In this document: piece by piece, positions 9,081-32,000 of the stretch
How the letters are laid out: each line of letters opens with the position of its first letter
Numbering within the stretch: the first letter of the stretch is position 1
Assembly: GCF_000189295.2 (NCBI RefSeq)
Contig: NC_016803.1
Span: forward strand, 1,620,001-1,652,000
Direction of reading: 5' to 3'
From: Pseudodesulfovibrio mercurii
GTDB lineage: Bacteria; Desulfobacterota; Desulfovibrionia; Desulfovibrionales; Desulfovibrionaceae
Length of the DNA: 32,000 nt
The notes under the pieces: generated by a model
Databases searched by the model: none
Seen by the model: the letters and a program-made list of their open reading frames with translations, nothing else
What the model was told of the DNA's origin: nothing
Made by a program: the position numbers and the translations under genes

Positions 9081-10288
9081 TGCGCAGGCTCTACCTCGAC
9101 CGCAACCTCCAGTACGTCTTCGGCGTGACGCTCATGGCCGTGCTCGGGGTGTCGTCGATCATCCCGGCCCTGCCCGACATCATGAAGGGGCTCCACCTGG
9201 ACGCGCAGCGGATCGGCCTGGTCATCTCGGCCTTCACCCTGCCCGGCGTGCTCTTCTCGCCCCTGGTCGGCATCCTGGCCGACCGCGTGGGCCGCAAGGT
9301 GCTCCTGGTGCCCTCGCTGTTCGTCTTCAGCGGGTTCGGGTTCGCCTGCTTCTTCGCCGAGACCGTGCAGCAACTCCTGGTCCTGCGTTTCTTCCAGGGC
9401 GTGGGCGCGGCCCCGCTGGGCGTGCTCTACTCGACCATGATCGGCGACCTGTACACCGGCCCGGAGCGCGGCCAGGCCATGGGCTACAACGCCTCGGTCC
9501 TGGCCATGGGCACGGCGGGCTATCCGGCCGTGGGAGGCGTACTGGCCCTGCTCGGCTGGAACTACCCCTTCCTGCTCCCCCTGTTGGCCGTGCCCCTGGG
9601 GCTGGCCATCCTCTTTTTCATGCAGACCCCGGAGCCGCAGAAGACCGGCAGCATAAAGGAATATTTCGCGGCCGCCTACCGGCGAATGAAGACACGCGAG
9701 GCCATGAGCCTGTTCGCCACCACCCTGCTGACCTTCATCATCCTGTACGGCCCGCTGATCACCTACCTGCCCATCCTGCTCAGCCACCGGTTCGGGGCCT
9801 CGTCCGCGACCATCGGGCTGGTCTTCCTGGCCGCCTCGGGCTTCACCGGGCTGGCTTCGTTCCAGCTCGGGCGGCTGACCCAGCGCTTCGGGCAGCGCAC
9901 CCTGCTCTCGGCGGCCGCCGTGTTCTACGGCCTGTGCATGCTCTTCACGCCCCACGCCCCGTCCCTGCTCCTGACCATCCCACCGGTCATCTGCTTCGGC
10001 CTGGCCCAGGGCCTGAACATCCCCACGGTCATGACCATGCTGACGACCATCGCGCCCATGGAACAGCGCGGCGCATTCATGGCCGCCAACGGCCTGCTCC
10101 TGCGCCTGGCCCAGACCGTGGCCCCCATGATCATGGGCGGGCTCTACGCCATGGGCGGCATGAACGCCGTGTACACGGGCGGGTTCGCCTGCGCCGTGGC
10201 CATCCTGCTCCTGGCCCGCTTCTGCATCGTCAACATCGACCACAACGCCCCTCAGCACCCGGCCGGGAACATCGACAAGACAGCATGA
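9080..10288 (+). CDS. MFS transporter
   Basis: 402 aa with about 12 predicted hydrophobic helices and the MFS loop motif GILADRVGRK. ATG overlaps the proB stop (TGATG). Confidence 0.9.
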   Translation: MRRLYLDRNLQYVFGVTLMAVLGVSSIIPALPDIMKGLHLDAQRIGLVISAFTLPGVLFSPLVGILADRVGRKVLLVPSLFVFSGFGFACFFAETVQQLLVLRFFQGVGAAPLGVLYSTMIGDLYTGPERGQAMGYNASVLAMGTAGYPAVGGVLALLGWNYPFLLPLLAVPLGLAILFFMQTPEPQKTGSIKEYFAAAYRRMKTREAMSLFATTLLTFIILYGPLITYLPILLSHRFGASSATIGLVFLAASGFTGLASFQLGRLTQRFGQRTLLSAAAVFYGLCMLFTPHAPSLLLTIPPVICFGLAQGLNIPTVMTMLTTIAPMEQRGAFMAANGLLLRLAQTVAPMIMGGLYAMGGMNAVYTGGFACAVAILLLARFCIVNIDHNAPQHPAGNIDKTA

Positions 10289-10431
10289 CGTCCCTCCGTT
10301 CCCGCCTGCAACACAGGCTCAACCCCCTGCACGTCTACTGCAGGCTTCGCTCGCTGGGTCTGGCCCATCGGCCCGCCCTGATGGTCTCCAGCTGCTGGGA
10401 ACGCGTCCTGTATCGGCGCATCCTGTCCTGA
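10285..10431 (+). CDS. Possible 48-aa small protein, translationally coupled to the MFS gene
   Basis: ATGA overlap with the MFS stop. Basic, Cys-containing peptide MTSLRSRLQHRLNPLHVYCRL.... No recognisable homology. Confidence 0.3.
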   Translation: MTSLRSRLQHRLNPLHVYCRLRSLGLAHRPALMVSSCWERVLYRRILS

Positions 10432-10439
10432 TCGAAGTC

Positions 10440-10456
10440 CGGGCCCCCCCGGCCCG
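10440..10456. terminator. GC hairpin between convergent genes
   Basis: CGGGCC-CCCCC-GGCCCG directly abutting the PadR stop. No U-tract. Confidence 0.3.
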
Positions 10457-10801
10457 CTACGACTCCCGGTAGCGCCGGATGAACGCGTCCAGCCGGTCGC
10501 GCTGCTTCTCCATGTGCAGAATCCACGCCTCCAGAACCTCCAGGCCCTCGGGCGTGACCGAGTAGACCCGCTTGGCCGGGCCGTCGCCCTCGGCATCCCA
10601 GTTGGAGGTGACCAACCCCTCCTCGTCCATCTGACGCAGATGGCGATAGATCATGCCCGGAGGCGCGTCGTCCCGCAAAAAGCCGTAGTCCCCGATGGAC
10701 TGGATGAGCTGGTATCCGTAGGAAGGCCCGGCCTTGAGGGCCATGAGCAGGGAGGGCTGTACGTACCGCTGCGGCTTGGAGCCGCCCACTTTTTTCGACA
10801 T
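10457..10801 (-). CDS. PadR-family transcriptional regulator
   Basis: MSKKVGGSKPQRYVQPSLLMALKAGPSYGYQLIQ...IYRHLRQMDEEGLV...RVYSVTPEG is a PadR winged helix. The upstream part of the track ORF was rejected as hydrophobic and AT-rich. Confidence 0.85.
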   Translation of the reverse strand: MSKKVGGSKPQRYVQPSLLMALKAGPSYGYQLIQSIGDYGFLRDDAPPGMIYRHLRQMDEEGLVTSNWDAEGDGPAKRVYSVTPEGLEVLEAWILHMEKQRDRLDAFIRRYRES

Positions 10802-10817
10802 GAGTGCAATGTCCTTC

Positions 10818-10847
10818 TTGACTATAGGTGCTTTAAGGATATATATA
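10818..10847 (+). promoter_or_regulatory. Candidate sigma-70 promoter for the small basic protein gene
   Basis: TTGACT (10818-10823), 17-nt spacer, ATATAT/TATATA (10841-10847), in an AT-rich divergent region. Confidence 0.4.
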
Positions 10848-10892
10848 CAGTATAGACCAATGTCCATTAAGGCACAAGCCAAGGAGACAATC

Positions 10893-11105
10893 ATGAAGAT
10901 TTTCGTACGTGAACGCATGCGGGCCGAGGAAGGGACCAGGAAGCCGAGATACCGCGTTGTCGGCATCCAGGGCGGGGATTTGAAGATTTACGCCAAGCGC
11001 ATCCGCCGGTGCGAGCTCAAGGAGCTGGCCGAACAGACGGGTGCCGAGATCGTCTACCTCCCCCGTGACGGCGAAGGGAGTGAGGGGAAGAAGAAGGCCG
11101 CGTAG
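10893..11105 (+). CDS. Small basic hypothetical protein (70 aa), divergent from PadR
   Basis: Strong RBS AAGGAG 6 nt upstream of the ATG. MKIFVRERMRAEEGTRKPRYRVVGIQGGDLKIYAKRIRRCELKELAEQTGAEIVYLPRDGEG.... Coherent codon usage. Confidence 0.6.
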   Translation: MKIFVRERMRAEEGTRKPRYRVVGIQGGDLKIYAKRIRRCELKELAEQTGAEIVYLPRDGEGSEGKKKAA

Positions 11106-11106
11106 C

Positions 11107-11283
11107 GGCTCCCGATAGCGGGCGATCTGCGCATTCTTTCCGGGGGGCTTGCGTCCTCACGTGGTAAGCCACGCTGCGGCGAAAGCCCCCCCGGAAGAAA
11201 ATGCACATCTGACCCACTCTCAAAAGCCTCGTGCGAACGCGGGAGAAGAGCCGCTGCCGGGTGCTGCGCACCCGAATCGCTCC
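11107..11283 (+). repeat. Structured intergenic repeat, copy A
   Basis: Aligns end to end with the reverse complement of 19900-20084. Contains a long imperfect hairpin (11131-11153 / 11180-11204) with an apical CGTGG-TAAG-CCACG hairpin. Confidence 0.85.
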
Positions 11284-11295
11284 AGTTTTTTGAAG

Positions 11296-11335
11296 AAAAA
11301 GGCCTTCGACTCGATACAGAGTCGAAGGCCTTTTT
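11296..11335. terminator. Bidirectional rho-independent terminator
   Basis: AAAAA-GGCCTTCGACTC-GATACA-GAGTCGAAGGCC-TTTTT: perfect 12-bp stem flanked by A and T tracts. Sits between convergent transcription units. Confidence 0.8.
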
Positions 11336-11396
11336 GTGCTCTTTGGCCCGCGAAGCGGCAATAAAAAGTATAGGAAAGGAGAGGGGATGGGGGCCC

Positions 11397-11451
11397 GGGG
11401 GAAGGGGAGAGGGAAAGCCCTTTACAAAGGGTTTCCCTCTCCCCTTCCCCC
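11397..11451. repeat. Long polypurine/polypyrimidine hairpin
   Basis: GGGGGAAGGGGAGAGGGAAAGCCCTTT-ACA-AAAGGGTTTCCCTCTCCCCTTCCCCC: a stem of about 26 bp with one bulge. Lies 22 nt downstream of the MoSto-like gene stop. Confidence 0.7.
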
Positions 11452-11472
11452 GGCCGCCGGAGGCATTCCTTG

Positions 11473-12324
11473 CTAATCCTTGTAGATGATCGTGCCGACG
11501 TGTTCGCCGTCCAGGGCGGCGTGGAGGTGTTCGGGGTGGCGGAGGACATCGATGATCTGGAAGGACTTGAGGGTCTTGGCGTTCTTGAGGAAGGTCAGGA
11601 CCGGACGTTCGACGATGAGGTCGTCGAGGTCGAGCTTGATCAGTTCGTCCACGTGGATCTTGTCGTAGAACTTGAGGGCGTCGCGGTTCTTGGCCTTCTT
11701 GGGGTCGCCGTCGAACATGCCCTTTTCGTCCTTGAGGTAGATAAGCGAGCGCGCGCCGATGTTTTCGGCCAGGAGGAAGGCCCCGGAATCGGTGCGGTGG
11801 GGCGGGATGGAGCCGTGTTCGGCCGGGTGCTCGAAGAAGCCGTAGGGCGGGATGCCGGTGGTGATGGGCAGGTAGCCGAGCTGGCAGTACATGTGCAGCT
11901 GCTCCAGGTGGTCGCCGTGGCCGATGAGGGCGCCGCCGTGCTTGGCCAGGAGGACCGAGAGCATCTCGGCGTTCTGGGCCGAGACCTTGTCGCCGAGCTT
12001 GGACAGGACGCCGGTGGGCATGCCCAGGTCCACACCGATGGAGTAGACGTGGCGGGCCCGGGTGCCGCCGCCGCACATGAGCAGAATCTTGTGCTTTTCC
12101 TTGGCCTTGACCAGTTCCTTGAGGATGGGGAACAGGGCCTTGGCCCCGCGGTCCATGATGGACTGGCCGCCGATCTTGAGCACGTTGACGTCCGGCTGCA
12201 TGCGGAAGTACTCGCTCGCCTCGGTGCCCTTGAGCACGTTGCGGTCCACCAGGGACTCGCCCATGAGCGGGGTGTCGATATGCAGTCTGCCCTTGGCGTC
12301 CTTTTCCTTGATCAGCTTGCCCAT
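11473..12324 (-). CDS. Amino-acid-kinase-fold protein resembling molybdenum storage protein (MosA/MosB-like)
   Basis: 283 aa with VLKIGGQSIMDRG, LMCGGGTRARHVYSIGVDLG, PPHRTDSGAFLLAE and C-terminal GEHVGTIIY. This pattern is recalled from A. vinelandii MoSto subunits. Distinct from the true argB and proB genes in this window. Confidence 0.8.
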   Translation of the reverse strand: MGKLIKEKDAKGRLHIDTPLMGESLVDRNVLKGTEASEYFRMQPDVNVLKIGGQSIMDRGAKALFPILKELVKAKEKHKILLMCGGGTRARHVYSIGVDLGMPTGVLSKLGDKVSAQNAEMLSVLLAKHGGALIGHGDHLEQLHMYCQLGYLPITTGIPPYGFFEHPAEHGSIPPHRTDSGAFLLAENIGARSLIYLKDEKGMFDGDPKKAKNRDALKFYDKIHVDELIKLDLDDLIVERPVLTFLKNAKTLKSFQIIDVLRHPEHLHAALDGEHVGTIIYKD

Positions 12325-13617: not shown

Positions 13618-13863
13618 ACGGCTATCCCCTGGTTAATTTCCTAGCACTTTAGGAGGATTTAACAAACTCGGTACAATGGATGCAACCGCAATCTGTTGAC
13701 TTCCCGCGATCTTTTTCACCATATTTTTCTATGGATGTCATGCAATCCGCCGATACCATCACCCGAAACCGCGTTGCGCGGACATTGACAGGGCGTGAAC
13801 CCTGCACATATCATCAAATATTGGTTGCCGCTTTTCCCCGACACGCAGCCCGAAAACACGACC

Positions 13864-16500
13864 ATGAGACACCCCTCGACCCCACTCCGCCCCGCATGGT
13901 GCCTGTGCGCCGCCCTCCTCTGGCTGGCCATCGGCCCCGCCGCCACGCCCGCCGTTGCCGCGCCCGTGCACTTCACCGTCCTGCTGGCCCCGTTCGAGAC
14001 CCCGGATACCGCCGGGAAGGCGCACCGGGCCGCGCTCAAGGCGCTCCTGACGGCCAACGGGTTCCGCGTAGTGGAGCCGCCGGAACTGCTGAACGGCCCC
14101 GGGCGGTACGCGGGCGTCTCCAAGTGGCTGGAGCCCGCCTGGCGCGACGGCTGGCTCGCCCGGACCCAGGCGGAATACGTCCTGTTCGGCCGGGAGGACG
14201 GCGACCTTTTGGTCCTGGGCATCTACCCCGGCTACGACTACGACGACTCGCCCAACGAGCTGACGGCCTACCGCCCCGGTGATCCGGCCGAGATGGACCG
14301 GCTGGCCCGCGACATCGGCCGGGCCGTGATCAACGCGGCCCGCGACTTCGTGGACGACGAGGACATGGACAACCGGGCCTACCGGCTCTCCCGCCACGCG
14401 GACAGGCTCAAGACGGCCCTCGGGCTCAAGGACAGCCCGTTCTTCCGCTCCCCCGGCAACACCTACGCCCTGCGCCTGGCCGTGGTGGAGACCCTCATGG
14501 AGCTGGACTGGGAGGTGGAGGACCGCTTCGTGCTCGAGGAGGTCATGACCCGGCTCGCGCCCCTGCTGGCCTCGGAAAAGGACAACCCCGACACGCGCGG
14601 CTACGTCTGGTCCCTGTCCATCCTCCTGAACACCCGCCTGGGCGACCGCTACGACGACCCCGCCGCCCTGCTGCGGGCCGTGGCCGACTGCGACGCCGTG
14701 CTCGCGTTCCCCGAGACCGGGGAGGACGCGGAGACCGCGTCGTGGACCTATGCCCAGAAGGGGGAAAACCTGCGGCGGCTGGCGCAACTGCGCGATGACA
14801 ACGGACTGTACCGGAGATCCAGCGACGACTTCATGCGGGCCCTGGACCTGCTGCCCAAGGGCCCGAACCGGCAACGGGGCGACATGCACTCCGACCTCGG
14901 CCTCAACGGCATGGACATGGCCCGCGCCACCGGGGACCCCAGGCTCTTCAAGGACGCCATCGGGCACTTCGACCGGGCGATCGAAAATTTCGACAGGCGG
15001 GAATACCCCTGGAGCTGGGGCATGGCCCAGGTCAACCGGGCCTGCGCCCTGATCGGCCTGGCCGACATCGAGGACCAGGTGGACAACCGGCGGCGGGCCA
15101 ACAAGAACCTGCGGCTGGCCCTGGAAGCCTTCACCCTGCGGGATTATCCGAGCCGATGGCTGGCCACCGAGGTCGCCCTGGGGCGCAGCCTGGTCAGCCT
15201 CGGCGACGAGACCGGAACGCCCGAGCCGTACCAGGAGGCCGCCGCCCTGCTCGACAAGGCCGTGCCCAGAGCGGAGGCGGAGGGCCTGGACTGGTCCGAG
15301 ATGTCCTTCTGGCTGGGGCTGGCCCACGAGCAGCTGGGCGAGACCGGGGACGACGCCGTACAGTTCGAGACCGCCGCGACCTGGTACGACAAGACCCTCG
15401 GCAAGCTGCCAGACGACGACCTGGACCTGAGGCCCTATACCTACAAGCGGCTCGGGTACGTGCTCGCGCAACTCGGCGAGCGCGAAAGCCTGCCGGAATA
15501 TTACGACAGGAGCGGGCAGGATTACGCCGTGGCGGCGGCCCTGTTCGCGCGGTCGGGCGACGAGGAGGAATGCGCCCTGGCCCGATTCCAGGAGGGGCGC
15601 AGCTATCTTTCCCTCACGGCGAGAACGCCCCAGGTCGAATCGCTGGACAAGGCGCTGTCCGCCTTCACCAAGGCCCTGGACCACTTCCGGGGTCACGACG
15701 AACGCCTGGCGACGGCCCGGTGCAACATCTACATCGCCCGGTGCCTCCTCCACCTCGGAGACCGGCTGGCCGAGGCCGACCACTACGTCAAGGCCCTGGC
15801 GCGCCTGGACGAGGCGCAGAAAGACCTTGCCGACAAGGCCCACCCCGCCGACTGGCTCAACACCGTGGCCGTGAAGGGGATGGCCTACGCCAGGCTGGCC
15901 GACCACTACAGGAGCATCGACGACTACGACAAGGCCATCGGGGCGTATTCCACCGTGCTGACGGCGATCCGGCTCGAAGACAACCCGGAACTGTGGGTGG
16001 ACACCCAAAGCGACCTGGGCATGACCCTCAAGCGCAAGGCCGCGCAGCTCGACGACGTCTCCATGGCCGAAGAGGCCGGGACCCACTTCCAGGCCGCACT
16101 CGACCATCTCAACCGCGAGCAGGACCCGGCACGGTGGGCGCGCGTCAGCAACAACTACGCGAATCTCCTGTGCTTCCAGGGCAGACTGACGCGGAAGACC
16201 GGCAGCCTTGAACAGGGCATCGCCACCTACCGCGCCGTGCAGGCGGTCTGGACCAGGGAGCGATACCCCCTGCAATGGGCCATGACCCTCTACAACATCG
16301 GCAACGCCCAGCTGTCCATCGCCTCCATGGGCGGGGACGGCAAGACGGCGGAGACCGCCCTGTCCCTGCTGCTGCAGGCCAGGGACAACCTCGGCGACCA
16401 GTCCCCCGGCTTCCGGGACGACATCGACGACAGCATCCGCACGGCCCGGAACCTGATCCGGCGGCTCCAGCGGAAGACCCCGGCCCGGTCCACCACCTAG
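13864..16500 (+). CDS. Secreted tetratricopeptide-repeat protein (878 aa)
   Basis: Start chosen at MRHPSTPLRPAWCLCAALLWLAIGPAATPAVAAP (signal peptide). At least six degenerate repeats have a [D/E/Y]P..W motif followed by a helix (REYPWSWGMAQVN, RDYPSRWLATEV, AHPADWLNTV, DNPELWVDTQ, QDPARWARVS, RYPLQWAMTLYNIGNA). Confidence 0.85.
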   Translation: MRHPSTPLRPAWCLCAALLWLAIGPAATPAVAAPVHFTVLLAPFETPDTAGKAHRAALKALLTANGFRVVEPPELLNGPGRYAGVSKWLEPAWRDGWLARTQAEYVLFGREDGDLLVLGIYPGYDYDDSPNELTAYRPGDPAEMDRLARDIGRAVINAARDFVDDEDMDNRAYRLSRHADRLKTALGLKDSPFFRSPGNTYALRLAVVETLMELDWEVEDRFVLEEVMTRLAPLLASEKDNPDTRGYVWSLSILLNTRLGDRYDDPAALLRAVADCDAVLAFPETGEDAETASWTYAQKGENLRRLAQLRDDNGLYRRSSDDFMRALDLLPKGPNRQRGDMHSDLGLNGMDMARATGDPRLFKDAIGHFDRAIENFDRREYPWSWGMAQVNRACALIGLADIEDQVDNRRRANKNLRLALEAFTLRDYPSRWLATEVALGRSLVSLGDETGTPEPYQEAAALLDKAVPRAEAEGLDWSEMSFWLGLAHEQLGETGDDAVQFETAATWYDKTLGKLPDDDLDLRPYTYKRLGYVLAQLGERESLPEYYDRSGQDYAVAAALFARSGDEEECALARFQEGRSYLSLTARTPQVESLDKALSAFTKALDHFRGHDERLATARCNIYIARCLLHLGDRLAEADHYVKALARLDEAQKDLADKAHPADWLNTVAVKGMAYARLADHYRSIDDYDKAIGAYSTVLTAIRLEDNPELWVDTQSDLGMTLKRKAAQLDDVSMAEEAGTHFQAALDHLNREQDPARWARVSNNYANLLCFQGRLTRKTGSLEQGIATYRAVQAVWTRERYPLQWAMTLYNIGNAQLSIASMGGDGKTAETALSLLLQARDNLGDQSPGFRDDIDDSIRTARNLIRRLQRKTPARSTT

Positions 16501-17523
<1,023 letters not shown>

Positions 17524-19753: not shown

Positions 19754-19880
19754 GACGCCCTCTCTACCACAACACGTCGGAATCCGTCCCGTATAAAAAG
19801 CGCTCCCCACGGCGCCGCCCCCCACCGGGGCGGCTCGGTCGGCGCAGCCCGACCGACAGCCCCTCCCCCGTGGCGATTCG

Positions 19881-19891
19881 CCCCCCCCCCC
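19881..19891. repeat. Homopolymeric C11 (G11 on the minus strand) tract
   Basis: Direct reading: CG-CCCCCCCCCCC-T-CCCCC. Lies about 130 nt upstream of the discoidin-like gene start, at the edge of repeat copy B. Confidence 0.9.
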
Positions 19892-19899
19892 TCCCCCTT

Positions 19900-20084
19900 G
19901 GAGCGATTCGGTCGGCGCAGCCGCCCGACAGCGGCTCTCCCCCACGCGCCCGCACGCAGTCAGGCTTTCGAGAGTGGGTCAGCTGTGCATTTTCTTCCGG
20001 GGGGCTTTCACCGCAGCGTAGCCGTCTACGTGAGGATGAAAGCCCCCCCGGAAAAAATGTGCAGATGGCCCGCTATCGGAAGCC
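19900..20084 (-). repeat. Structured intergenic repeat, copy B (inverted relative to copy A)
   Basis: The reverse complement aligns with 11107-11283 (same termini GGCT[C/T]CCGATAGCGGG ... CGAATCGCTCC). The apical hairpin here is CGTAG-ACGG-CTACG. Confidence 0.85.
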
Positions 20085-20088
20085 GCAC

Positions 20089-20167
20089 CTACTAGGCGGG
20101 AAAGCGCGAAAAAAAGGGCGGCCCGCTCGGGCCGCCCTTTTTTATTCCGCGCTTTCCCGCCTAGTAG
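20089..20167. terminator. ahcY terminator embedded in a nested 79-nt palindrome
   Basis: Inner hairpin A7-GGGCGGCCC-GCTC-GGGCCGCCC-T6 (20109-20143). Outer perfect 20-bp inverted repeat CTACTAGGCGGGAAAGCGCG (20089-20108) / CGCGCTTTCCCGCCTAGTAG (20148-20167). Confidence 0.8.
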
Positions 20168-21591
20168 CGGTAGTGGTCGGGCTTGTAGGGGCCTTCGACA
20201 TCGACCCCGATGTAATCGGCCTGCTTCTGGGTCAGCTTCTCCAGCTTCACGCCGAGACGGCCCAGGTGCAGGCGGGCGACCTCTTCATCCAGCTTCTTGG
20301 GCAGGATCATGACCTTGGGCTCATAGTCGTTCTTGGCCAGGTCCATCTGGGCCAACGCCTGGTTGGTGAAGGAGTTGGACATGACGAAGCTCGGGTGGCC
20401 GGTGGCGCAGCCGAGGTTGACCAGGCGGCCTTCGGCCAGGATGATGATGGACCGGCCGGACGTGAGGGTCCACTTGTCCACCTGGGGCTTGACGGTCTTC
20501 TTGGTGCAGCCCTTGGTCTTCTCCAGGTAGATCATCTCGATCTCGGAGTCGAAGTGGCCGATGTTGCACAGGATGGCCTCGTCCTTCATGGCCTCCATGT
20601 GGGCGCCGGTGACCACGTGGTAGTTGCCGGTGCAGGTGACGAAGATGTCGCCGCGCGGGGCGGCGTCGTCCATGGTGGTCACCTCGAAGCCCTCCATGGC
20701 GGCCTGCAGGGCGCAGATGGGGTCGATCTCGGTGATCAGGACGCGCGCGCCGAAGCCGCGCATGGACTGGGCGCAGCCCTTGCCCACGTCGCCGTAACCG
20801 ACCACGACCACGACCTTGCCCGCCACCATGACGTCGGTGGCGCGCTTGATGCCGTCGGCCAGGGACTCGCGGCAGCCGTACAGGTTGTCGAACTTGGACT
20901 TGGTCACGGAGTCGTTGACGTTGATGGCCGGGAACAGGAGTTCGCCCGCGCGCTGCATCTCGTAGAGACGATGCACGCCGGTGGTGGTCTCCTCGGACAC
21001 GCCGCGCACCTTCTTGGAGATGTCGGTCCACTTGGTCGGATTGGCCTTCACCGAGGCGCCCAGGCGGTCCATGATGATCTGGAACTCGTGGACGTCGTAT
21101 TCCTTGTCGGCCAGGGACGGGTCGGCCTCGACCTTGACGCCCTGGTGGATGAGCAGGGTGGCGTCGCCGCCGTCGTCCACGATGAGGTCCGGGCCCGAGC
21201 CGTCGGGCCAGGTCAGGGCCTGCTCGGTGCACCACCAGTAGTCCTCCAGGGTCTCGCCCTTCCAGGCGAAGACCTTGGCCATGCCGGAGTCGGCGATGGC
21301 CGCGGCGGCGTGGTCCTGGGTGGAGAAGATGTTGCAGGACGCCCAGCGGATGTCCGCGCCGAGCGCGTGCAGGCACTTGATGAGCATGGCGGTCTGGATG
21401 GTCATGTGCAGGGAGCCGGTGACCTTGAGGCCCTTGAGCGGTTTTTCCGTGCCGTACTTCTCGATGATGGCCATGAGGCCGGGCATCTCGCGTTCGGACA
21501 GCTGCATTTCCATGTGGCCCCACTCGGCCAGGGAGAGGTCGGCCACCTTGTACTCGCAGGCGGGATCGACGGGCGTGACGTTTTTGGACAT
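20161..21591 (-). CDS. ahcY: Adenosylhomocysteinase
   Basis: 476 aa, [25 protein letters not shown]...[14 protein letters not shown]...[14 protein letters not shown]...NIGHFDSEI...DHYRY. GGAGGAAACC RBS. Confidence 0.97.
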
Positions 21592-31940: not shown

Positions 31941-32000
31941 TGGGCTGTCGTTCAATTGGCAGGACGACGGATTCTGGCTCCGTTAATCAAGGTTCGAGTC
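31941..32000 (+). tRNA. tRNA-Gln (anticodon CUG), 3' end truncated by the window
   Basis: Manual fold: acceptor UGGGCUG, D-stem GUUC/GGAC, anticodon stem ACGGA/UCCGU with loop UUCUGGC, T-arm CAAGG-UUCGAGU. Resembles E. coli tRNA-Gln as recalled. Confidence 0.85.

Follow-up and report, generated by a model that had tools for sequence, protein, structure and literature searches.

The window analyzed here comprises 32,000 nucleotides (nt) of Pseudodesulfovibrio mercurii ND132 (contig NC_016803.1, positions 1,620,001–1,652,000) and contains two copies, A and B, of a structured intergenic repeat whose family we call E1. Copy A lies between two convergent genes. The upstream gene, DND132_1473, encodes a hypothetical protein that has 48 homologues in Pseudodesulfovibrio and Maridesulfovibrio and is conserved with Desulfovibrio caledoniensis; its TAG stop codon (11103–11105) abuts the repeat. 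Copy A is followed by an intrinsic terminator (T) and by a second repeat, E2, and the resulting E1-T-E2 composite (11105–11467) fills the gap between the two stop codons, with that of the opposing amino acid kinase gene 6–9 nt from the end of the composite. Copy B, on the other strand, begins 4 nt past the terminator palindrome of ahcY. From sequence comparison we consider it likely, with a probability of roughly 70%, that E1 is a repeat family not described before, whose intergenic members are non-coding foldback (palindromic) sequences and occur only within a sub-clade of Pseudodesulfovibrio.

Copies A (11107–11284, + strand) and B (19899–20084, − strand) align end to end over ∼180 nt with 87% column identity, from GGCT[C/T]CCGATAGCGGG at the start to CGAATCGCTCCA at the end. 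The pair was recovered independently by a repeat search of the window (I1, I3, and I4), which also returned an internal palindrome of copy B (19963–20021 against 20026–20084; I2). The similarity that an earlier sequence-only reading had noticed is therefore confirmed, as is its view that the copies are non-coding. Differences between them consist of indels, which fall in the linker where that reading had placed them, and of block-wise replacement of stem segments. Both of the compensatory changes it described are present, the apical stem being CGTGG/CCACG in copy A and CGTAG/CTACG in copy B, and the G11153-C11180 pair of copy A being A-T in copy B. The 3′ hairpin has likewise been re-made from different sequence, TCGGGTGC-TGC-GCACCCGA in copy A and TCGG-G-CGGC-TGC-GCCG-A-CCGA in copy B. 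Folding is much more stable than for shuffled sequence, with z scores of −4.9 and −4.7 for the strand as given and −5.9 for its complement. Two elements of that reading stand only in part. The long hairpin exists but is larger than proposed, since the pairing of 11131–11153 with 11180–11204 is the inner part of a 122-nt structure (11107–11228). Similarly, 180 nt describes the extent of similarity between the copies but not the unit at copy A, which runs on through the terminator (11301–11335) and the second repeat (11348–11464).

The core of E1 is a 122-nt interrupted (imperfect) hairpin with a conserved lower stem and tip and a block-variable mid-stem, often preceded by a leader consisting of a G-run and then GCGGCTT. 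The lower stem contains ∼31 pairs, and its near-invariant arms are incompletely complementary, the 31-nt arms being identical at 24 of 31 positions when compared as inverted repeats. In all sense-oriented copies examined, positions 10 and 20 are T.C and positions 13, 24, and 25 are C.A or A.C; positions 6 and 17 are usually C.A. The mid-stem, of 11–15 pairs, comes in discrete types (e.g., GGGGGCTTTCA, GGCCGCGCCAA, GAGGGCCCGCCTGA, and GGGGGCAAGACA) whose two arms are replaced jointly, and the tip is an apical stem-loop, conserved as ATCCTCACGTAG-ACGG-CTACGCTGCGGT apart from compensatory variants. A variable linker that includes a small hairpin leads to the 3′ module, which forms a hairpin and is 37 nt long (GAGCCGCTGTCGGGTGCTGCGCACCCGAATCGCTCCA). 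In metagenomic relatives of low GC content (loci L044, L045, and L057), the lower stem, mid-stem, and tip are kept and the 3′ module is lacking, which identifies the 122-nt hairpin as the conserved core. Inspection revealed no convincing terminal inverted repeats of either the full 180-nt unit or E1-T-E2. Two further assignments were rejected. The mid-stem does not behave as a guide to its local flanks, with six 9-mer matches against a null of 7.5 ± 3, and the 3′ module (GAGCC...) is not domain V of a group II intron, as there is no Intron_gpII match and the geometry of the loop and bulge is wrong.

Features at and around the two E1 copies, in window coordinates
Feature	Position	Strand	Evidence or remark
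Conserved 70-amino acid hypothetical protein DND132_1473, upstream gene of copy A	10893–11105	+	100% match, P. mercurii ND132
Copy A, lower stem, 5′ arm (GGCTCCCGATAGCGGGCGATCTGCGCATTCTTT)	11107–11139	+	Near-invariant, ∼39 sense-oriented copies
Copy A, variable mid-stem, 5′ arm, type 1 (CCGGGGGGCTTGCG)	11140–11153	+	Subfamily types swap this segment and its partner jointly
Copy A, conserved apical stem-loop (TCCTCACGTGG-TAAG-CCACGCTGCGG)	11154–11179	+	Compensatory variants GTAG/CTAC, GTAC/GTAC, GTGG/CCAC
Copy A, variable mid-stem, 3′ arm	11180–11194	+	Covaries with 11140–11153
Copy A, lower stem, 3′ arm (AAGAAAATGCACATCTGACCCACTCTCAAAAGCC)	11195–11228	+	Kept even in low-GC metagenomic relatives
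Copy A, variable linker with small CGnG hairpin	11229–11247	+	Length variation; indels or insertions in L002, L006, L020, L003
Copy A, 3′ module: GAGC...GCTC outer stem enclosing TCGGGTGC-TGC-GCACCCGA	11248–11284	+	92–100% identity between copies
A/G-rich spacer	11285–11300	+	Purine-rich in every terminator-bearing copy; U-tract for opposite-strand termination
E1-linked intrinsic terminator, bidirectional (GGCCTTCGACTC-GATACA-GAGTCGAAGGCC + T5)	11301–11335	.	17-base pair (bp) stem and T-run
Second repeat E2: CGCGAAGCGG hairpin, AAAAAGTATAGGAAAGGA, G/C-rich palindrome with 33-bp arms (11390–11458), end ...GCCGCCGGAGGC	11348–11464	+	Repeat search (I6)
Convergent downstream gene, amino acid kinase family (PF00696)	11473–12324	−	Synteny conserved
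Copy B, 122-nt long hairpin, type 1 mid-stem	19963–20084	−	Covariance-model match, 183 bits
Copy B, linker and 3′ module (…GAGCCGCTGTCGGGCGGCTGCGCCGACCGAATCGCTCCA)	19899–19962	−	Alignment, covariance model
3′ of copy B: G-rich run, partial second 3′ module, GGTGGGGGGCGGC = E1 5′-leader remnant	19810–19898	−	D16: 19800–19849 resembles 19873–19922, 70%
ahcY terminator within extended palindrome with 27-nt arms, taking in the ahcY stop codon	20089–20167	−	I12
ahcY (adenosylhomocysteinase), co-oriented gene upstream of copy B	20161–21591	−	PF05221, 2e-144; homologues of 476 amino acids

The terminator is itself part of the repeat. Twelve copies, including copy A, bear an intrinsic terminator of the same type (GGCCTCCGACTC-N4-9-GAGTCGGAGGCC followed by a T-run). 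This corresponds to about one-third of copies, with copy B and around half of the copies having none. All 12 terminators of this type in ∼450 kb lie no more than 70 nt downstream of an E1 3′ end, so the terminator belongs to the repeated unit, and the A/G-rich spacer that precedes it implies that it is bidirectional. In 11 of the 12 terminator-bearing copies, E2 then follows.

A 21-mer from the 3′ arm, scanned over one genome per species, matched 27 loci, 13 of them in D. caledoniensis lm2024, 13 in P. karagichevae 9FUS, and 1 in a member of the Bacteroidales. The last is a chance match, so the genuine loci bearing the pattern number 26, all in the other two genomes. With 21 canonical copies as input, a covariance model identified ∼30 copies in the D. 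caledoniensis and P. karagichevae loci and, in the window, none beyond copies A and B; searching metagenomes for a 5′-arm pattern contributed ∼14 more. In total, the model matches ∼45 places with scores of 67–213 bits, at a density of at least 14 copies per genome (roughly 15–30). The sub-clade carrying E1 is thus made up of P. mercurii ND132, D. caledoniensis, P. karagichevae, and metagenomic relatives, and the presence of at least 45 copies in at least three species excludes the chance duplication that the two window copies might have represented. The 13 D. caledoniensis loci are dispersed over its 4.15-Mb chromosome, and 7 of the 14 P. karagichevae copies lie <400 nt from a contig end, the behavior anticipated of a repeat at which assemblies break. 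At gathering thresholds Rfam has no family for E1, the only match being a transfer RNA (tRNA) elsewhere in the window, and at permissive E-values it gives merely sub-threshold matches to generic hairpins (microRNA precursor). Searches of plasmids, phages, and viral contigs returned no E1 match, and an origin from any of these was rejected; a literature search found nothing on such repeats in Desulfovibrio or Pseudodesulfovibrio. The evidence for a lineage-restricted, dispersed, modular repeat is strong.

E1 occupies a consistent place relative to genes. The upstream gene is co-oriented with the repeat in ∼27 of 30 copies in the window, D. caledoniensis, and P. karagichevae and in 11 of 13 metagenomic copies (together ∼38 of 43, ∼90%), so the position after gene ends first noticed for copies A and B holds for most of the family, in fixed orientation. 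About 15 of the first 30 copies start 0–22 nt past a stop codon and ∼8 just past the T-run of a terminator; 10 of 30 lie between convergent genes and 7 between co-directional ones. An abutting TAG, as at copy A, is frequent, yet these genomes end more genes with TAG than with any other stop codon (92 of 163, 56%), and we rejected it as a target or as a stop codon carried by the element. The sequence 5′ of GCGGCTT is unrelated from copy to copy, which argues against a shared promoter, and a sigma-70-like site was looked for and not found. In D. caledoniensis, 8 of 14 copies share an orientation relative to replication, with the origin assumed at position 0, and there is no clear bias.

The genes next to E1 are ordinary housekeeping genes. 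All-against-all BLASTP of the open reading frames (ORFs) in the loci paired orthologues only, and in a Pfam scan of 145 neighboring proteins the families shared by at least two proteins were exclusively housekeeping ones. Neither the genome scan nor the metagenome scan showed E1 pattern matches in the paired arrangement of an insertion sequence (IS).

Pairing was assessed in 21 aligned copies, with 500 shuffles of pairing partners and with slid-partner controls. Standard pairs account for 97.1% of stem cells, compared with 89.7 ± 0.5% after shuffling and 33–45% when partners are slid. Both sides have changed in 15 pairs (86 cells), and none of the 500 shuffles matches the observed percentage paired, the number of both-side changes, or the covariation score. 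Stepwise double changes can be followed within one mid-stem type, for example between L017 and both L018 and L010. Conserved pairing is therefore well supported, and the sequence-only reading is borne out in its inference of conserved pairing, which persists through many double substitutions among 21–45 homologues.

Comparison of orthologous sites shows that E1 is present in some species and absent from others. The copy A site is filled in D. caledoniensis (L006), whereas the same site, after the 70-amino acid gene, has no E1 in P. cashew, P. hydrargyri, P. piezophilus, and D. sp. Fe33; the site of copy B, after ahcY, has a simple terminator only in three relatives, including P. portus. Where orthologous copies exist, their parts can have different histories. 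In the orthologues L025a and L014a, the arms and 3′ module are 93–97% identical and the inner hairpin is 63% identical, each inner hairpin instead being 95–97% identical to a paralogue elsewhere. The pairs L001/L008 and L025b/L014b show similar behavior, which implies that a site either received E1 more than once or underwent ectopic gene conversion. With its size of 122–180 nt, lack of a conserved ORF, multiple dispersed copies, and presence/absence polymorphism, E1 resembles a miniature inverted-repeat transposable element (MITE), and the evidence favors the REP/MITE-like alternative that had been raised for copies A and B. No known IS or MITE that combines terminal inverted repeats with target-site duplications was found to match.

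Whole copies or parts of them have also been rearranged. The inner hairpin (mid-stem and tip) is reverse-complemented between the arms at L026 1835–2016 and L058 370–566, and at L056 12146–12464 two full E1 copies are inverted around a terminator, forming a perfect palindrome of >300 nt. L019 and L023, in which deletion of a hairpin has left solo 3′ modules, are decayed versions of this L056-type arrangement; an explanation by inversion or stem swap was rejected for this pair, each lineage having lost a different hairpin of an ancestral E1-T-E1. At the ahcY terminator, the palindrome has outer arms CTACTAG...CTAGTAG, and extended palindromes of a similar kind enclose the terminators that precede E1 in L001 and L008, which suggests that fold-back inverted duplication may occur at terminators. 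Variable-length G-runs flank many E1 copies on one or both sides, although those with G-runs on both sides are not consistent. Downstream of copy B, an 11-G run is followed by a partial second 3′ module and then by GGTGGGGGGCGGC, the usual E1 5′ leader.

E2 is a second, independent repeat family, consisting of the CGCGAAGCGG hairpin, AAAAAGTTTAGGAAAGGA, and a long G/C-rich palindrome ending in GCCGCCGGAGGC. The loci contain 21 copies, with or without E1, at sites that include window 11348–11464 (+), L001–L027, and L029 3300–3410, and these usually abut the stop codon of the opposite-strand gene. At the copy A site E2 is older than E1: P. hydrargyri has a diverged E2 there and no E1. Within the E2 of the window, four G-tracts (11383–11409, +; GGGG-AT-GGGGG-CCC-GGGGG-AA-GGGG) are compatible with a G-quadruplex motif. 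From 11386 runs a short ORF whose Shine-Dalgarno sequence is good; its frame is unconserved in D. caledoniensis, and it is thus probably non-coding. In addition, an 82-nt three-hairpin module, E3 (CAAATCCGC...GGGGCGAATCA; −45 kcal/mol), is found at L008 1177, L015 6955, L023 (−) 2169, L027 1761, and L020 7480. In four E1 copies it sits at the same insertion point, between CTCTCGA and AAGCC, and once it lies outside E1, there with a compensatory variant of hairpin 2. This module looks like a third small repeat family.

Elsewhere in the window, a 2.8-kb segment (13717–16548) carrying the gene for a 901-amino acid TPR-repeat protein (13795–16500) is absent from D. caledoniensis locus L006, which is otherwise syntenic and has ∼150 nt in its place. 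A PadR-family regulator gene (10252–10596, −) is divergent from the 70-amino acid gene, judging from synteny with L028–L032, and the shared promoter region between them (10600–10892) is ∼90% identical to that of D. caledoniensis, a level of conservation equal to that of coding sequence. The last 60 nt (31941–32000, +) hold the 5′ part of a tRNA gene cut by the window end (Rfam tRNA, 31.7 bits).

These observations can be assembled into a model in which E1 multiplies, or has multiplied, as DNA by means of an enzyme supplied in trans, with ectopic gene conversion homogenizing its copies. Because it lies in sense orientation between a stop codon and a terminator, E1 would be transcribed into the 3′ untranslated region (UTR) as a long hairpin. 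There it would most likely act in the manner of REP, ERIC, and Correia elements, protecting or processing the 3′ end of the messenger RNA (mRNA), and together with its terminator it may insulate convergent or neighboring genes. Such a role at 3′ ends is suggested by the sense orientation between stop codon and terminator, by the possession of a bidirectional terminator, and by the symmetric E1-T-E2 and E1-T-E1 arrangements between convergent genes. We therefore think that E1 in 3′ UTRs probably shapes mRNA 3′ ends and helps to insulate neighbors, and that the structured intergenic repeats of ND132 probably define where housekeeping mRNAs such as that of ahcY end.

A number of observations weigh against this interpretation. 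The copies known in ND132 are the two in the window. With regard to the route by which E1 spreads, we infer mobility from distribution only, since among 30 copies inspected no target-site duplication, consistent target, or conserved 5′ tetranucleotide could be defined; nor does any transposase, integrase, or reverse transcriptase recur within 3.5 kb of 43 copies. Copy A and its orthologue in L006 are 84–97% identical by segment, compared with 80–91% at four-fold sites, and this approximately neutral divergence means that the pair gives no indication of purifying selection. The character of the pairing is also at issue. The inner hairpins contain 864 Watson-Crick pairs, 20 sense G.U pairs, and 35 antisense G.U pairs, so that G.U makes up 2–4% of pairs, and one-sided intermediates (G-C to G-U) are very rare. 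Moreover, the antisense strand folds better as RNA, by 15–25 kcal/mol, in 21 of 21 copies. Such a pattern is unusual for a sense-strand RNA under selection. The step from conserved pairing to functional RNA, taken by the sequence-only reading, is consequently unsafe, given near-pure Watson-Crick pairing, G.U pairs without sense bias, and the flipped and giant palindromes of L026, L058, and L056.

The most probable of the alternatives, although still an unlikely one, makes E1 a selfish or structural DNA palindrome that is maintained at the DNA level, by hairpin-templated repair, intra-element or ectopic gene conversion, or fold-back replication, and has no function as RNA or for the host. Covariation would then be a mechanistic by-product. 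The pair counts, the near absence of one-sided intermediates, the inner-hairpin flips, the L056 palindrome, the extended palindromes around upstream terminators, the hairpin deletions, and the near-neutral divergence of copy A from L006 all point in this direction, and upkeep of a DNA palindrome accounts for the pairing pattern at least as well as selection on RNA. What it accommodates poorly is the persistence of seven lower-stem mismatches, five of which (10, 13, 20, 24, and 25) occur in every copy, distant relatives included; this counts against simple homogenization of the arms, as an indiscriminate process would erase them. The ∼90% sense orientation and the linked terminator imply selection connected with transcription, and the arms and 3′ module of L025a and L014a are far better conserved than the non-repeat spacer adjacent to them. 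In a further alternative, which we regard as doubtful, E1 is a folded single-strand DNA site for a tyrosine recombinase or an HUH (Y1) enzyme, comparable to integron attC sites, REP/REPIN-RAYT pairs, or palindromic elements derived from IS200/IS605; the fixed mismatches would mark the active strand, and the mid-stem would be a spacer. It would account for conserved ends and invariant asymmetric mismatches with a variable paired centre, for a single orientation directly after ORFs, for replacement of inner hairpins at orthologous sites with no target-site duplication, and for the GTAG/CTAC motif at the tip; E3, inserted with no evident duplication and, like the E1 3′ module, terminating in a hairpin and GAATC, could be read in the same way. 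However, no integrase or Y1 transposase recurs among the 145 neighboring proteins, copies are dispersed among housekeeping genes without cassette arrays, and the attC core sequences RYYYAAC and GTTRRRY are absent (the consensus having been read by eye). Equally, no tetranucleotide is conserved 5′ of E1, no clear bias in replication direction is seen with the assumed origin, and 122 nt with ∼15–30 copies per genome is unlike REPs. A more specific and slightly more doubtful version holds that E1 is a dispersed attC-like folded-DNA site at which a recombinase, recognizing the hairpin with its invariant asymmetric mismatches, installs or exchanges “3′-end cassettes” (hairpin, bidirectional terminator, and E2) between stop codons. 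It would explain the gap-filling convergent composites, the differing inner hairpins at orthologous sites, and the absent target duplications and, if true, would amount to site-specific swapping of gene-end regulatory modules outside integrons.

Two RNA-centered alternatives rank lower still. The discrete small RNA (sRNA) gene entertained by the sequence-only reading is not supported by comparison of the copies, and we do not take E1 for a stand-alone trans-acting sRNA gene. Strong structure, a linked intrinsic terminator in about one-third of copies, and a variable segment between conserved scaffolds would suit a family of paralogous trans-acting sRNA genes that each possess a promoter and a terminator of their own, with the mid-stem or the purine-rich spacer as seed. 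This is very improbable, as the sequence upstream of GCGGCTT is not shared, and a start 0–22 nt past a stop codon or 5–30 nt past a terminator T-run, as in many copies, leaves too little space for a promoter common to them. The variable segment lies within a helix and is unrelated to its own flanks, deleted, flipped, and tandem partial copies are common, and Rfam gives no match. The least probable explanation is that the functional RNA is the antisense one, made by read-through from the convergent gene, its near-perfect hairpin serving as a roadblock or RNase III substrate. It draws on the greater stability of that hairpin in all 21 aligned copies, on G.U pairs on the antisense strand at five of seven lower-stem mismatch positions, and on the 10 of 30 copies between convergent genes. 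Yet the five G.U positions are co-inherited and represent few independent events (5 versus 1, not significant), the better T-run and the stop-codon-adjacent position are on the sense side, 7 of 30 copies lie between co-directional genes, and antisense transcripts would meet the bidirectional terminator first. We therefore retain the family of non-coding foldback repeats as our interpretation, followed in order of likelihood by the selfish palindrome, the folded single-strand DNA site, the sRNA family, and the antisense RNA.

P. mercurii ND132 is a model organism for microbial mercury methylation, and its intergenic regions contain at least three unannotated structured repeat families (E1, E2, and the 82-nt module). 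Repeats of this kind break short-read assemblies and can be mistaken for sRNA genes.

Among known systems, the ERIC elements (IRU) of Enterobacteriaceae are imperfect palindromes of ∼127 bp in transcribed intergenic regions, strictly intergenic and co-transcribed, present in tens of copies per genome, and with insertion variants at fixed sites and deletion derivatives. No transposase is known for them, and they show no clear target duplication. E1 is similar in being a single long imperfect hairpin of ∼120 bp, intergenic, in tens of copies, with insertion and deletion variants and likewise with neither a recurrent neighboring transposase nor a target duplication found. In contrast, its sequence is not similar to that of ERIC, it is confined to few Pseudodesulfovibrio species, and ∼90% of copies lie in sense orientation; a mid-stem that varies in blocks, an additional hairpin module at the 3′ end, and an associated terminator also set it apart. 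In Correia elements, terminal inverted repeats of 26 bp are accompanied by a duplicated TA target and an IHF site, and the elements derive from an end that a transposase can recognize. With Correia/NEMIS (Neisseria), RUP, BOX, Nezha, and Chunjie elements E1 shares the form of a small non-coding palindrome in UTRs that would give an RNA hairpin and imports a transcription signal, in its case a terminator; it differs from Correia in that no target duplication, preferred dinucleotide, or parent IS was found near its copies. The E1 arm (GGCTTCCG...) may resemble ISL3-family ends, a similarity to be taken as a lead and no more.

REP units are 20–40 nt long and occur in hundreds of copies. REPINs consist of two inverted halves whose complementarity is maintained, are mobilized by RAYT (Y1), and spread independently of IS elements, and these repeats have roles in mRNA 3′-end stabilization and termination. 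Like REP, BIME, and REPIN elements, E1 is an extragenic palindrome after gene ends with GTAG/CTAC at its tip; however, it is 122 nt long (180 nt with the 3′ module) and present in tens of copies, the GTAG is unconserved (type 3 has GTAC), and no RAYT/Y1 gene recurs beside it among the families shared by at least two of the 145 neighboring proteins. An attC site is an imperfect palindrome of 57–141 bp directly after an ORF, in fixed orientation. E1 resembles it in its conserved ends, variable paired centre, and conserved unpaired bases, which make the two strands non-equivalent, and differs in the absence of R′′/R′ core motifs, cassette arrays, and a nearby intI, and in its housekeeping neighbors such as ahcY. 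Considered against these systems, E1 is a clean case that combines conserved, sequence-specific ends, fixed mismatches, a swappable middle, and a bidirectional terminator that it brings along. It might serve to distinguish maintenance of pairing at the DNA level from that at the RNA level and to seek the mobilizing enzyme; it opens no new category, a comparable logic being already familiar from ERIC, REP/REPIN, and Correia elements.

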